Below, in pieces: positions 27,332 through 31,486 of a stretch of DNA of 64,000 nt. Below the pieces are notes generated by a model that saw only the letters and a program-made list of their open reading frames with translations, was not told where the DNA came from and searched no databases. The stretch is from Myxococcota bacterium (GTDB lineage Bacteria > Myxococcota_A > SURF-8). The translations under genes were made by a program, and so were the position numbers. Each line of letters begins with the position of its first letter. Position 1 is the first letter of the stretch. Location: NCBI GenBank assembly GCA_963674735.2, contig CAXXQS010000001.1, positions 288,001-352,000 on the forward strand, in the 5' to 3' direction.

Positions 27332-28186
27332 ATGATATTGGTCACAGGAGCAACCGGAACGGTCGGACGTCAGGTGGTTGAGTCGTTGCGTAGCAAGGGG
27401 GTTCCGGTGCGCGCCGGACTCCGCGACATCGAAAAGGGGGGGCGTTTGTGGCCCCACGGCGTCGAATGGGCAAAGCTGGATTTCGATCAACCCGAAAGCC
27501 TGGCGAAGGCCTGCGAAGGGATTCGGAAAGTTTTCTATGTGTCACCCTTTTCACCGGATATGGCGGAACAAACCGGCCACCTGGTGCAACAGGCGTTGAA
27601 AAGCGGGGTGACGCATATCGTGCGACTGTCGGTGTACGGCGCGGATGAGGAGAAACCTACGGCGTTGCAACGCGGGCACCGGGACGCGGAGCGTTTGATC
27701 GAGGAATCGGGGCTGGCCTACACGTTTTTACGGCCGAATTCGTTTATGGAAAACTTCATCCATCATCATGGTGCGGCGATTCGTTCCCAAAACCAGGTTT
27801 TCATGCCCATGGGAAAGGGGCGCGTGAGCTATGTGGCCGTGCGGGATATCGCCGATGCGGCGGCGGAGGTTTTGACGAGCGAAGGCCATGCCGGCAAGAG
27901 CTACACGCTCACCGGACCGCAGGCGCTCGATGGGCGGGATGTGGCGTTGGCGCTCTCCGAAGCGCTCGGACGATCGATCGTCTTTACCGATATTCCGGAA
28001 GACACCGCACGCGCGGCCATGTCGATGATGCCGCGGTGGTTGGTCGATGCGCTGCTGGAGTTGCAGGCCGCCTGCAAAGTGGGGAAATTCGCCGAGGTTT
28101 CCGAATCGGCGCGCCGTCTGGCCGGGCGTCCGGCGACTCCATTTATGAACTGGGCGCGCGAGCATGTCGAGGCCTGGGTGGGCTGA
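27332..28186 (+). CDS. NmrA/SDR-family NAD(P)-binding oxidoreductase
   Basis: MILVTGATGTVG, YTFLRPNSFMEN, SYVAVRDIADAA, YTLTGP; AGGAGG RBS. Confidence 0.92.
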   Translation: MILVTGATGTVGRQVVESLRSKGVPVRAGLRDIEKGGRLWPHGVEWAKLDFDQPESLAKACEGIRKVFYVSPFSPDMAEQTGHLVQQALKSGVTHIVRLSVYGADEEKPTALQRGHRDAERLIEESGLAYTFLRPNSFMENFIHHHGAAIRSQNQVFMPMGKGRVSYVAVRDIADAAAEVLTSEGHAGKSYTLTGPQALDGRDVALALSEALGRSIVFTDIPEDTARAAMSMMPRWLVDALLELQAACKVGKFAEVSESARRLAGRPATPFMNWAREHVEAWVG

Positions 28187-28227
28187 TCCTCGTATCGGAG
28201 TCGCTCGGAGCGACTTGGCTTTCGTGG

Positions 28228-28253
28228 GTTGGAGCGTGTCTCCGACGGGCTCC
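28228..28253 (+). repeat. 26-bp palindromic REP-like unit (family B), copy 1
   Basis: GTTGGAGCGTGTCTCCGACGGGCTCC, identical at 29562-29587 and related at 47685-47710. Confidence 0.8.
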
Positions 28254-28280
28254 AGGTGCTGAAATCACTCATCGTCCAAA

Positions 28281-28356
28281 AGTAGGATGGGCAACTTGTT
28301 GCCCACCTTTAATGTGTTAATCATGATGTAATGATGGGCAACAAGTTGCCCATCCT
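28281..28356. repeat. GTAG-type REP doublet (family A); the second REP is interrupted by the IS110
   Basis: AGTAGGATGGGCAACTTGTTGCCCACC (28281-28307) and inverted GATGGGCAACAAGTTGCCCATCCT (28333-28356), which resumes as ACT at 29533. Confidence 0.85.
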
Positions 28357-28369
28357 TGTATTATCCCTT

Positions 28370-28579
28370 TCAAGCGACTGTCATCGTTTGTGATGATAAG
28401 ATGAAACGACCTCCCGTAGCAAGCGGGAGGCCGTGGTGGGCGGCGAGATCGTCCCATCCTGGGGCCTGATGAGCCCGTTTTGTAGCCGGATCCGCCGTCC
28501 GTTTCGTCCGGGAAAACCCGAACAGTCGCAGGGGCCATTGTAATCGAAATGAGCCCGTATTGGCAAGGAAGGGTGCGCC
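28370..28579 (+). ncRNA. Predicted bridge RNA (5' hairpin, target-binding loop, donor-binding loop); ends approximate
   Basis: LTG CCCATCCT 28453-60, RTG GTAG 28482-85, LDG ACAGTCGC 28522-29, RDG CAAG 28564-67; each pair flanks a GGGC..GCCC inner stem. Confidence 0.85.
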
Positions 28580-29515
28580 ATGAAGAAATGGATCGGGATC
28601 GACGTCAGCAAAGCCGTTTTCGATGTCGCCGTCGACGGCGAAAGCACGTGCGTCCGCTACGCTTACACCAAAGCCGGCATGACACGCTTCGTCCGTTCGT
28701 TGAAGCGGATCGAGGTGGAGGGCGTCGTGATGGAAGCCACCGGCGGCTACGAACGGGAGCTGTGCAAACGTCTTCAGAAAGCGGGTTGGCCGGTGGCGGT
28801 GGTCAATCCCCGGCGCATCCGGGATTATGCCCGCGCCGTCGGCGTGATGGCGAAAACGGATCGACTCGATGCGGGCATCATCGCACGCTACGCAGCCGCC
28901 ATGCGTCCCGCACCGAACGAAACGCTCGGCGAAACCGCCCTCCTGTTAAAAGCCCTGTCTTCACGGAGGCGGCAGCTGGTCGCCATGCGCACGATGGAGA
29001 AAAACCGCACCGAACACGTGGGCGATCGGACGATCGGACAAAGCCTGCACCGCATTCTGGAGGTGATCGAACGGGAAATCGAGCGGCTGGATCGGGCCAT
29101 CGCGGCGGCCATTGCATCGGATCGGGAGCGCAGCGACCGGGCCGCGCGGCTCCAAACGATGCCGGGCGTCGGCGCGTGCACGGCGAATCTTCTGGTGACG
29201 GATCTGCCGGAGCTGGGGATCTACAACCGGCGGCAGATCGCGGCGTTGATCGGCGTGGCGCCCATGAATCGGGACAGCGGAACGTTTCGGGGTAAACGCA
29301 TGACCGGCGGCGGTCGTCATCGCCTGCGCACGGCGCTCTACATGCCGACGCTGGTGGCGATTCAACACAACCCGGTGATTCGCGGACACTACCAGCGGCT
29401 GGTCGGACGCGGCAAACCGAAGATGACGGCGGTGGTGGCCTGCATGCGAAAATTGGTCCTCATTCTCAACACGATGATGCGGAAAAACGAAGCCTGGAAC
29501 CCGAATTTCGCTTGA
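28580..29515 (+). CDS. IS110-family DEDD recombinase/transposase
   Basis: IGIDVSK, VMEATGGYE, KTDRLDA, MPGVG, GVAPMNRDSG (catalytic Ser), GGRHRLRTALYM, VACMRKL. Confidence 0.97.
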   Translation: MKKWIGIDVSKAVFDVAVDGESTCVRYAYTKAGMTRFVRSLKRIEVEGVVMEATGGYERELCKRLQKAGWPVAVVNPRRIRDYARAVGVMAKTDRLDAGIIARYAAAMRPAPNETLGETALLLKALSSRRRQLVAMRTMEKNRTEHVGDRTIGQSLHRILEVIEREIERLDRAIAAAIASDRERSDRAARLQTMPGVGACTANLLVTDLPELGIYNRRQIAALIGVAPMNRDSGTFRGKRMTGGGRHRLRTALYMPTLVAIQHNPVIRGHYQRLVGRGKPKMTAVVACMRKLVLILNTMMRKNEAWNPNFA

Positions 29516-29561
29516 CACCGATAACAGTCGCTACTCACTACTCACTAATCATCATTCCCGT

Positions 29562-29587
29562 GTTGGAGCGTGTCTCCGACGGGCTCC
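29562..29587 (+). repeat. 26-bp palindromic REP-like unit (family B), copy 2
   Basis: Identical to 28228-28253. Confidence 0.8.
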
Positions 29588-29592
29588 TAACT

Positions 29593-29620
29593 AAAAACGG
29601 GCCGGTTTGATACCGGCCCG
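29593..29620 (-). terminator. Terminator of the M3 peptidase gene
   Basis: A5 followed by cgggccggt-ttgat-accggcccg. Confidence 0.75.
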
Positions 29621-29641
29621 CGTGAGATTTCGTGGCTTCGA

Positions 29642-31486
29642 TCAGGCGTCCAGGGTTTTGATCCAGGTTTTGTATTGTTCGGCCATCTCTTCGAAGCTGG
29701 CGGTTTCGGTGGTGGCGATCACCTTTGCACCGTGCACCATGCGAATCGTTCCGTCGAGTTCCACCGGTCCGCTGCTGGCCGGGACGTCTTTCAGCTTTTC
29801 GACCTTGCGCCGTTGTTCCGCCACCGCTTCGTCAACGGTCAATGCCGCGTCTGCGACCAAAGCATCCATGTTGAAGGGTTTGCCGGTAAGCTGGGCCACG
29901 GCGTCCACGAACGGAATGCCGTTGCCGGGACGCCAGTAGGCCGCCTGCAGCGCCGGACCGATCTTGGGGTTGTCGGTAAGGAAACCATAGGTGGTCAGGA
30001 AATAATGCCGCGTTTGGGCCACGCCCGCCAGTGCCAGCACGTAACCGTGATAAATGCAGCTCGCTTCGCCGGAGAGCAGGTGCGGGACAGCCAGGGTGGG
30101 ACGCGCGCAGCGCGGCAGTCCCAACAGGCGCTGTTCGATTTCCACAAAAGCGGCCATCACCTTTTCCTGGGTGAGGTCGGCTTCGTCCATTTCGTAGAGC
30201 GCCTTCTCGGCGTAGCAGATGATCAACAGCGAGCGGATAAACGAGGCTTTGGCCGGTTGGTTGAGCTTCGTGGAATTTTCGATCACCTCCCAGGGGATCG
30301 GATTGCCGTCGCGGTCCTTGGCGTAGCGTGTCAGCCAGTCGGCGTCGTCCAGCAGCGAATCGCAGAACATCGATTGGGTTTCGGCGAAGGCGGCCGAGGT
30401 GGGGGCGAATTCCTGGCTGAAGCACGGCGCGCCCATCAGGACATTCGAGAAGTGGGCGGCGTGTCCACCCTCGTGGAAGAGCGTCTCGGCGGCGCGTTTT
30501 CCGCTGCCGATCTGGCCCGGTACGGCGTTCGACGTGAAGTTGACGCGTGCCCGTTCGCGCCCCTCGGCGTCCTCGAAAGGGGCCACCGGGGCGTGGCAGA
30601 AGCCGTTTTCATACTTGCCTTTGCGCACCATCAGGTCGAGTTGCAGTAGGGACTGTTCGTAGCGGATACCCAGCGCCATGAAGCTTTTGCCCCAGCGTAA
30701 GAGCGCGTCGTCGAACTGCATGTAGGGATCGATGTCTTTCATGGCGTCGCCCTGGGTGAAGTAGCGGAAATTCCAGGGCTTGAGCGCCGCTTCCCCATGC
30801 TGGGCGGAGACACCGGCGATGTAGCGGGTTTGCGCGTCGCGGGTGCGGGCTTCCAGGTCGTCGAGCAATTCGAACAGTTTCGCTTTGCCGAAGCCTTCGG
30901 TGGTGCTGACTTTCCAGTCGTAGTAATCTTCATAGCCCAGCAATCGGGCGAAGCGGTTACGCGCTTTGACGATCTCGAAGAAGCCGTTATCGATCACATA
31001 GCTTTCAATCGATTCGAGTCCTTCAAAGGCGGCTTTGCGCAGCGCTTCGTCGTCCGCCGACCCGATTTTCAACGCCAATTCCACCGAACTGGCGGCCTGA
31101 TGCGCGCCGCTTTGCGGGTCGGTGTAGCCAAGCGGCATGCCGCCGCGTGCCTTGGCCAGTTCGCTTTCCATGCCGATGATGGTGTCCGACAGCGCCCGGG
31201 CCTCTTCGTTCTCGATGACGTTGGCTTCGAAAAAGCGGATCCAGCCGTTCAAGGTGACGGTCTGAGCCTCGTCGGCATTCCCCGACGCCAGCAGCTCGCG
31301 GCATTGATTGAGCTTGGTTACGTCGTTCTTGAAGGCATTGAGCGCGCCTTCGGCCTTGTTGAAGGGGGCGTATTCGTTGGAGATGCCCATCTTGGTTTCC
31401 CAAAACAGTTCTTCCTTGGCGACGTGCAGGCGGTGGTATTCGCGGTTCAAGGCGACGATGGCCTGGGTGATTTCGTTGTGGGTCAT
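29642..31486 (-). CDS. M3-family oligopeptidase
   Basis: RKGKYENGFCH, TLFHEGGHAAHF (HEXXH), FAETQSMF, YHGYVLA. Confidence 0.88.
   Translation of the reverse strand: MTHNEITQAIVALNREYHRLHVAKEELFWETKMGISNEYAPFNKAEGALNAFKNDVTKLNQCRELLASGNADEAQTVTLNGWIRFFEANVIENEEARALSDTIIGMESELAKARGGMPLGYTDPQSGAHQAASSVELALKIGSADDEALRKAAFEGLESIESYVIDNGFFEIVKARNRFARLLGYEDYYDWKVSTTEGFGKAKLFELLDDLEARTRDAQTRYIAGVSAQHGEAALKPWNFRYFTQGDAMKDIDPYMQFDDALLRWGKSFMALGIRYEQSLLQLDLMVRKGKYENGFCHAPVAPFEDAEGRERARVNFTSNAVPGQIGSGKRAAETLFHEGGHAAHFSNVLMGAPCFSQEFAPTSAAFAETQSMFCDSLLDDADWLTRYAKDRDGNPIPWEVIENSTKLNQPAKASFIRSLLIICYAEKALYEMDEADLTQEKVMAAFVEIEQRLLGLPRCARPTLAVPHLLSGEASCIYHGYVLALAGVAQTRHYFLTTYGFLTDNPKIGPALQAAYWRPGNGIPFVDAVAQLTGKPFNMDALVADAALTVDEAVAEQRRKVEKLKDVPASSGPVELDGTIRMVHGAKVIATTETASFEEMAEQYKTWIKTLDA

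Follow-up and report, generated by a model that had tools for sequence, protein, structure and literature searches.

The window analysed here is a stretch of 64,000 nucleotides from a Myxococcota bacterium (assembly GCA_963674735.2, contig CAXXQS010000001.1, positions 288,001 to 352,000), and coordinates refer to it unless a genome contig is named. Positions 28357-29532 hold an insertion sequence (IS) composed of a non-coding left end of 223 nt, a recombinase gene and a right end of 17 nt beyond the stop codon, inserted in one member of a pair of palindromes of the repetitive extragenic palindromic (REP) type. Judging from its sequence and from that of its relatives, we consider it very likely to be an intact IS110-group element that moves by bridge-RNA-guided recombination, and it is probably active. 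In such systems, two loops of an RNA encoded by the element carry guides to the target DNA (left and right target guides, LTG and RTG) and to the joined ends of the excised circle, the donor (left and right donor guides, LDG and RDG). The features of the locus are the following.

28281-28307, minus strand: inverted partner REP that has a CT-AC tail of its own and is a near-target without insertion (GGTGGGCAAC...CCCATC-CT-AC on this strand), agreeing at 26/27 with the restored target
28333-28354, plus strand: REP-like palindrome GATGGGCAACAAGTTGCCCATC, with a 9-bp stem and a 4-nt loop; its 3' arm (28348-28354, GCCCATC) is the left target
28355-28356, plus strand: left copy of the CT core, placed from the sequence and the flanks of the copies
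28357-29532, plus strand: insertion sequence of 1176 bp, with 8 identical copies in the genome
28359-28364, plus strand: -10 hexamer TATTAT of a predicted promoter that is complete only in the circle
28373-28386, plus strand: left arm of an inverted repeat of 14 nt, whose other arm is in the right terminus (13/14); in RNA form, this arm is complementary to the left donor guide
28406-28434, plus strand: 5' stem-loop of the putative bridge RNA (CCUCCCGU / GCGGGAGG), present in three folds
28438-28500, plus strand: predicted target-binding loop (outer stem, internal loop, inner stem GGGGCC/GAGCCC), from fold and consensus
28452-28460, plus strand: left target guide UCCCAUCCU, whose positions 2-9 equal the target CCCATC-CT
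28482-28487, plus strand: right target guide GUAG (complement of CT-AC), followed by the handshake-position bases CC
28516-28574, plus strand: predicted donor-binding loop (outer stem ACCC/GGGU; inner stem GGGGCC at 28531-28536 with GAGCCC(G) at 28551-28557), from fold and consensus
28522-28530, plus strand: left donor guide ACAGUCGCA, 8/9 equal to the right end ACAGTCG-CT
28559-28569, plus strand: right donor guide AUUGGCAAG, in which CAAG is the pairing partner of CT-TG and, given a bulge of two bases, AU that of ..AT, followed by handshake bases GA complementary to target positions 6-7 (TC)
28580-29515, plus strand: recombinase gene, 311 amino acids (PF01548 and PF02371; NF033542)
29512-29517, plus strand: -35 hexamer TTGACA of the predicted promoter, overlapping the stop codon
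29519-29532, plus strand: right terminus, comprising the right arm of the 14-nt repeat, the left donor ACAGTCG (29524-29530) and the CT core (29531-29532)
29533-29534, plus strand: right target AC, placed from the sequence and the flanks of the copies

The dinucleotide CT is found at both junctions (28355-28356 and 29531-29532), the last two bases of the element being CT, followed by ACT. When 28333-28356 is joined to 29533-29535, a 27-mer is restored whose reverse complement agrees with the partner REP (28281-28307) at 26/27 positions, which is what an earlier note on this DNA had read. The same note had proposed the circle junction ACAGTCG-CT-TGTAT; both ends do read in this way, since the element ends with ACAGTCG-CT (29524-29532) and starts with TGTAT (from 28357).

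The recombinase contains both domains of the family, PF01548 (79.5 bits) and PF02371 (68.2 bits), each above its cut-off, and reaches 218 bits with the NCBI equivalog model NF033542 "IS110 family RNA-guided transposase" (cut-off 140). Among proteins of solved structure, it was matched by sequence over residues 4-300 to ISCro4 (E 3e-37, 131.5 bits) and to IS621 (E 1e-34, 123 bits with phmmer). The residues D8, E52, D94, D97 and S233-G234 are invariant among 26 aligned relatives and align to D11, E60, D102, D105, S241 and G242 of IS621, which are named as motif residues in PMC11208158; the DEDD motif and the serine are thus intact, as had been claimed. Among 5.8 billion clusters searched, the nearest protein shares 64% identity. 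When one genome per species was scanned, 80 related loci (40-62% protein identity) were obtained, from Myxococcota, Desulfobacterales, Zixibacteria, Planctomycetota, Nitrospirota and others. Myxococcota hold the closest named relatives, and elements with 69-70% DNA identity are present in genomes of the same family and order as that of the window. The earlier description of an unusually small recombinase had to be abandoned: most of the best 120 matches are 311 aa long, so this length is typical of the clade and is indeed its modal value.

Genomic copies and the REP family

The genome (5.26 Mb in 3 contigs) was searched with the whole element and contains 8 copies at 100% identity over all 1176 bases, four on each of the two large contigs. 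All of them have the same orientation and lie directly after GATGGGCAACAAGTTGCCCATC-CT and before AC (7 ACT and 1 ACG); the common insertion site that the earlier note proposed to look for is therefore present in 8/8 copies, at GCCCATC-CT-AC. Further out, and shared repeats aside, the flanks are unrelated (in 6/8 copies on the right side, and in most copies on the left once past the REP). The absence of terminal inverted repeats at the extreme ends and the fixed orientation in a specific target, found in 8/8 copies, are characteristic of the IS110 group.

Perfect 11-nt targets without insertion (GCCCATCCTAC; GCCCATC-CT-AC) number 16, every one of them inside a REP. The REP-like family is low-copy and oriented, with 40 matches to its 16-nt centre (at most 2 mismatches), about 37 of which have the full palindrome, and the REP orientation AACAAGTT is always paired with a CCTAC tail. 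Several copies occur in inverted pairs, 25-47 nt apart. These are the usual marks of REP elements, namely short imperfect palindromes in many copies, often arranged as inverted pairs. The 10-nt target has no occurrence outside REPs in this genome, a depletion that is not significant, given a Markov expectation of only 1.7 and the equal absence of 12 among 300 composition-matched (permuted) 10-mers. Neither another IS110-family gene nor a solo extra copy of the RNA gene was found in the genome, in which only the 8 full elements match.

Five Y1_Tnp matches are present in the genome, none adjoining a listed REP. The Y1 transposase frames recorded are two identical ones of 150 aa (IS200-like) and two weaker ones of 182 aa (C1:107653-108018, C1:1746961-1747326, C1:276756-277121 and C2:350140-350490, where C1 and C2 are genome contigs). 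No cognate REP-associated tyrosine transposase (RAYT) was identified for the REP family; a RAYT link is not established, and the flanks of the Y1_Tnp matches were not examined further.

A second repeat family, TTGGAGCGTGTCTCCGACGGGCTCC, was found at 28229-28253 and 29563-29587, where it forms a direct repeat around the REP pair and the IS. It has 32 copies in the genome (at most 3 mismatches) and lies to the right of 3/8 IS copies. Two IS copies share an identical 54-nt right flank that includes this repeat (C1:317533-317586 and C1:2103626-2103679), which suggests a composite repeated unit or the duplication of an already occupied site. The two large contigs, of 2.69 and 2.37 Mb, differ in G+C content (54.7% and 57.5%, respectively), and the third contig (198 kb) has no IS copy. 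In two public sequencing runs, the depth of the element contig was 7-8 times that of the flanks, a value that is not a copy number and was not used as evidence.

Left-end RNA, guides and circle junction

According to the earlier note, the left end encodes an IS621-type bridge RNA whose guides lie in two internal loops. The single-sequence fold of the whole left end has an energy of -93.9 kcal/mol (z = -4.10), and that from the likely start site -87.6 (z = -2.64). These two folds and a third, trimmed one all contain the 5' hairpin (28406-28434) and the hairpin 28438-28500, whose internal loop has UCCCAUCCU in its 5' strand and GUAG in its 3' strand; the second hairpin (28516-28574) is seen in the trimmed fold. 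The placement in loops therefore stands for the target guides in all three folds, and fails for the left donor guide in the two longer ones, as weighed below.

Comparative evidence was obtained by aligning the upstream 260 nt of 46 non-redundant loci carrying ACAG[TC]CGC. Whole left ends were then aligned for 30 elements (the window and 29 of 42 candidates, the 13 others being more distant, truncated or near-duplicate), and the RNAalifold consensus of these 30 left ends consists of precisely the two loop hairpins. After removal of three RNAalifold pairs inside the donor loop, 22 pairs (653 cells) were tested: 97.1% of the cells are standard pairs, and 8 pairs, belonging to four helices, have changed on both sides (58 cells). 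None of 500 column shuffles matched the observed pairing, compensatory counts or covariation score, and the pairing fell to 33-54% when partners were slid by 1-3 columns. Compensatory changes preserve the stems in public relatives whose protein identity is 41-64%.

The guide strings were found where the earlier note had located them (TCCCATCCT at 28452-28460, GTAG at 28482-28485, ACAGTCGC at 28522-28529 and CAAG at 28564-28567). They match target and donor at 8/9 positions for the LTG, 4/4 for the RTG, 8/9 for the LDG and 4/4 for the CAAG of the RDG, plus AU. The guide columns coincide across the 30 aligned elements. Guides and flanks were compared between relatives, the LTG being taken as the nine columns after the conserved GAGATCG and the RTG as the four columns before the conserved GC..GATCC. 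Of the 46 rows, 34 offered both ends together with an LTG free of gaps, and these correspond to 29 distinct loci. At non-core left-target positions, guide and flank agree in 146/203 cases (shuffled mean 100.2), and at non-core right-target positions in 52/58 cases (shuffled mean 38.2); 0/10,000 shuffles reached the observed agreement on either side, even with five distant loci that are one column out of register and lower the observed count. Individual relatives illustrate how guides follow flanks. The element L040 has the guides TTGACACCT and GTCAG, and the flanks TTGACA-CCT and CT-GAC; the right guide is TTAAAG with the flank CT-TTAA in L043 and L046, CACGGAG with CT-CCGTG in L057, and GCCGCAG with CT-GCGGC in L071.

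The first LTG position agrees with the flank in 21% of the loci, compared with 66-97% for positions 2-7. It is consequently not informative in this clade, and the mismatch found there in the window (U for G) is no defect: the 8/9 match counted in the earlier note is correct as a count, and amounts to 8/8 informative positions. Covariation at handshake positions has been described for IS110 elements (PMC11208158). Here, the base after GUAG is C in 30/30 left ends and can pair with donor position 7, which is G, while the base after CAAG is G in 30/30 left ends and can pair with target position 7, which is C in nearly all of them. As for the second handshake base in the window, A of the donor loop pairs with target T6, and C of the target loop does not pair with donor C6.

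On the donor side, the right end reads ACAGTCGCT in 35/46 related loci and ACAGCCGCT in 6 (it was not found in 5), the left end starts with TGTAT in 44/46, and the donor guide columns are nearly invariant in the 30 left ends. Donors are likewise reported to be more conserved than targets in PMC11208160. Since donor ends and guides are clade-wide, the donor pair is no novelty of the window element; as LTG and RTG identical to those of the window also occur in L016, L036 and L054, the new target/donor pair announced by the earlier note was not upheld. In the RDG, we infer the placement of the bulge in AUUGGCAAG on CT-TGTAT from the pattern of nine RNA bases on seven donor bases described in PMC11208160.

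The joining of both ends is predicted to reconstitute a sigma-70 promoter, TTGACA-17-TATTAT, whose spacer is made of 15 right-end bases and the TG of the left end (hexamers at 6/6 and 5/6). This prediction is supported by the relatives: 33/33 distinct ones with both ends found have at least 4/6 in both hexamers at exactly 17-nt spacing. In the integrated copy, the scan gives only TGGGCA-18-TATTAT (9/12, with the weak TGGGCA). A promoter complete only at the junction fits the published production of bridge RNA, which is described as coming for the most part from the circle, with weak output from genomic copies (PMC11208160; PMC13626964). In seven relatives (L024, L030, L031, L034, L048, L049 and L052), the left end has an insertion (alignment columns 18-60) with GTTGACC, about 17 nt, and TATAA or TATGA; this promoter-like site may be an internal promoter that expresses the RNA without the circle.

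Proposed mechanism, alternatives and related systems

On the model of IS621, excision would produce a circle whose junction creates the TTGACA-17-TATTAT promoter, from which a bridge RNA of about 200 nt would be transcribed, its start lying near 28371-28373. In the sequence, loop 1 (CCCAUCCU and GUAG) matches the two strands of the target CCCATC-CT-AC, and loop 2 (ACAGUCGC(A) and AU..GCAAG) the joined ends ACAGTCG-CT-TGTAT. Recombinase tetramers would hold together the RNA, the circle junction as donor and the REP as target; the serine would cut after the CT core on each top strand and, after strand exchange and resolution of the Holliday junction, the element would be placed after the CT of the REP. 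The LTG/RTG/LDG/RDG reading of IS621 type made in the earlier note is borne out by the single target of 8/8 copies, the compensatory stems, the tracking of flanks by guides, the junction promoter and the catalytic residues.

Several results weigh against this interpretation. In the contigs of three contig-only public runs from one study, neither a circle junction nor an empty site was found at this locus, and kin genomes gave no orthologous empty site; 6 of them keep the right-hand peptidase gene without an adjoining REP or target. As to the RNA, the trimmed fold (28404-28575; -69.9, z = -1.32) is not significant against shuffles. In the two longer folds, which include the first 50 nt, ACAGUCGC is paired with GCGACUGU at 28374-28381 instead of being looped, and in the trimmed fold the 3' half of the LDG is weakly paired with the opposite side of the loop. 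Position 1 of the LTG (U against G) and the last base of the LDG (A against the core T) are mismatched in the window; in IS621, too, LDG and donor differ at the last base of the core. The tested consensus structure was derived from the same alignment, which favours it in the slid control, and the permutation tests of flanks against guides ignore relatedness among loci. Finally, no family of Rfam 15 reaches its threshold over 28000-29800 (E up to 10), and the RNA is therefore placed by its architecture and not by a curated model. Apart from these results, a single contig joint from 28305 to 29558, with 13 other letters between, was rejected as an excision product, since it belongs to a separate locus where a REP lies beside the second repeat.

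The alternative that survives best is that the target is chosen mainly by the recombinase, which would recognise the REP hairpin as a DNA structure, the guide matches being secondary or carried along. The left target is the 3' arm of the hairpin in the window, and in 23/41 distinct related loci the 7-nt left target has a partner of at least 6/7 within 30 nt upstream (perfect in 14). In kin genomes, relatives lie in other palindromes that share the arm ...CCCATC or ...CCCGAC. Every perfect 10-nt target of the window genome lies in a REP, and guide and hairpin are inseparable there for that reason. Moreover, in ISPpu10 a target stem-loop located 5' of the paired bases is reported by a preprint of 2026 to be an added specificity determinant. 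However, guides change with flanks across relatives, including on the right side, which is outside the hairpin; the 18/41 loci without a left-target hairpin, mostly those of more distant elements, still keep their guide matches; and recombination by IS621 is reported to be retargeted by rewriting its guides (PMC11208160). We thus regard recognition of the hairpin as the main determinant as unlikely. As the left target is the hairpin arm, the hairpin may nevertheless be a second specificity determinant, and a mixed model of guide plus hairpin is compatible with guided recombination as the best explanation.

It is even less probable that the element is domesticated or an inactive relic whose copies were spread by the duplication of larger repeat units. 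The two copies with an identical 54-nt right flank and the three with the second repeat on their right mean that some copies could have been duplicated with their surroundings, and the lack of a circle junction or empty site in the public contigs points the same way. On the other hand, 6/8 right flanks are unrelated, as are most of the left ones once past the REP, the 8 copies do not differ from one another and keep an open frame of 311 aa with its catalytic residues intact, and promoter halves, guides and ends are all intact. Lastly, the idea that the matches between loops and flanks are chance in a GC-rich leader, the left end being merely a 5' untranslated region, draws on the shortness of the matched strings (8, 4, 8 and 4 nt) and on the trimmed fold, and can be set aside because of the 8/8 identical insertion sites and the permutation tests on both sides, with the compensatory changes in four helices and the common guide columns of 30 elements also against it.

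Guided recombination being retained, the element can be placed among known systems. Like IS621 of Escherichia coli (PDB 8WT6), it has both protein domains, the aligned DEDD and serine residues, the CT core, a REP target, a left-end bridge RNA with 5' hairpin, target loop and donor loop (known here from sequence) and a promoter rebuilt at the circle junction. A 9-nt LTG, a 4-nt RTG GUAG for CT-AC and a discontiguous RDG are also common to both (PMC11208160, PMC11208158), and the natural 11-bp target described for IS621, ATCAGGCCTAC, likewise ends with CT-AC (PMC11208160). The two elements are nonetheless distant (phmmer 123 bits) and differ in protein length (311 against 326 aa), in the left target (CCCATC here), in the LTG, of which 8 positions appear informative in the window clade, and in the inverted repeat (14 nt here, against the 2-3 bp reported for the IS110 group). 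The element DNA has no blastn match in 5,426 E. coli genomes, and the IS621 RNA was compared through its published descriptions. ISCro4 (IS622) of Citrobacter rodentium (PDB 9T56) is the best match of solved structure (131.5 bits, residues 4-300) and represents the same type of system; it is reported to have been picked from 72 tested orthologues for its activity in human cells (bioRxiv 10.1101/2025.05.14.653916), whereas the window element is known from sequence.

ISPpu10 and ISPpu9 of Pseudomonas putida are likewise IS110 elements described in identical copies of one intergenic palindrome or REP, with 7 copies in REPs reported for ISPpu9. They differ by their hosts, REPs and guides, and the window genome is without solo copies of the RNA gene. 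With the IS1111 group, in which the RNA (seekRNA or bridge RNA) is in the right end, the element shares the DEDD/serine recombinase and a 14-nt repeat that falls within the reported 7-17 bp range of subterminal inverted repeats. Membership of this group was rejected: in place of a long right-end guide RNA and subterminal repeats, the RNA is in the 223-nt left end, the right end has 17 nt, and the right arm of the 14-nt repeat is terminal. The RNA in the left end together with the 17-nt right end indicates the IS110-group arrangement. Also among the closest systems are relatives of 311 aa (L009-L060; Myxococcota, Desulfobacterales, Zixibacteria and Planctomycetota), with 49-62% identity, which have in common with the window element the ends (ACAGTCGCT / TGTAT), the loop scaffold and the junction promoter, and whose REPs differ from its REP in stem or loop.

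The claims of novelty are weaker than the reading of the mechanism, and the element adds one more ordinary member to a family whose description dates from 2024. The bridge-RNA class has been covered since then by structures, reprogramming rules and a screen of 72 orthologues (PMC11208160, PMC11208158, bioRxiv 10.1101/2025.05.14.653916), of which 18 are reported as active in human cells and one as useful (bioRxiv 10.1101/2025.05.14.653916). A literature search combining IS110, bridge RNA and Myxococc found no paper, published ortholog tables being outside its coverage. As an editing tool, the element is one more candidate among thousands. It adds a predicted natural bridge recombinase with defined ends, guides, target and donor, from a host lineage far from the enterobacterial elements studied so far, and its 8 identical copies and 16 empty targets in one genome offer a convenient natural setting in which to study REP targeting and the control of copy number. 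The clade data are possibly of wider use, with an uninformative LTG position 1, left targets embedded in hairpins, an invariant junction promoter and a repeat complementary to a guide.

The 14-nt inverted repeat and other features of the left end

Positions 28373-28386 (left-end positions 17-30) are the reverse complement of 29519-29532 at 13/14 positions. For comparison, subterminal repeats are given as 2-3 bp in the IS110 group and 7-17 bp in the IS1111 group (PMC11208160). A complement of the LDG of at least 7/8 is found at left-end positions 9-19 in 11/30 relatives, 5 of these 11 being individually rare in shuffles. Conservation of this repeat as an RNA feature was not established in the 30 relatives: its position varies (10, 15 or 18) and no covariation is seen where the donor is ACAGCCG. 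A function of the 14-nt repeat is doubtful. It might act in the RNA, where an 8-bp helix between the 5' end of the bridge RNA and the LDG would mask this guide until the recombinase or the donor DNA opens it, or in the DNA, as a long subterminal inverted repeat linking the IS110 and IS1111 groups. If it were true, the masking of the LDG and the REP hairpin would be two structural checks added to base pairing in this clade.

The Rfam matches below threshold were not counted; they comprise miRNA models of plants and animals, which fall on the REP pair, and sX15 (RF02234) on the minus strand. The latter is a weak reverse-strand match across both loops (28434-28566; 23.5 bits against a gathering threshold of 55, E 0.31). 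In Xanthomonas, sX15 and asX7 are described as complementary transcripts, with 10 homologues in Stenotrophomonas maltophilia (PMC3300014), and the sX15 family may derive from an IS110-type end. The minus strand of the window also has a promoter-like site from 28566 to 28537 (10/12) and a terminator-like hairpin from 28434 to 28406. An antisense RNA was considered as a possibility, but the conserved CATTGTA also forms the 5' half of the inner stem of the donor loop. Finally, a 25-nt inverted repeat with 80% complementarity, between 28487-28511 (3' side of the target hairpin and linker) and 28913-28937 inside the recombinase gene, may be due to chance.

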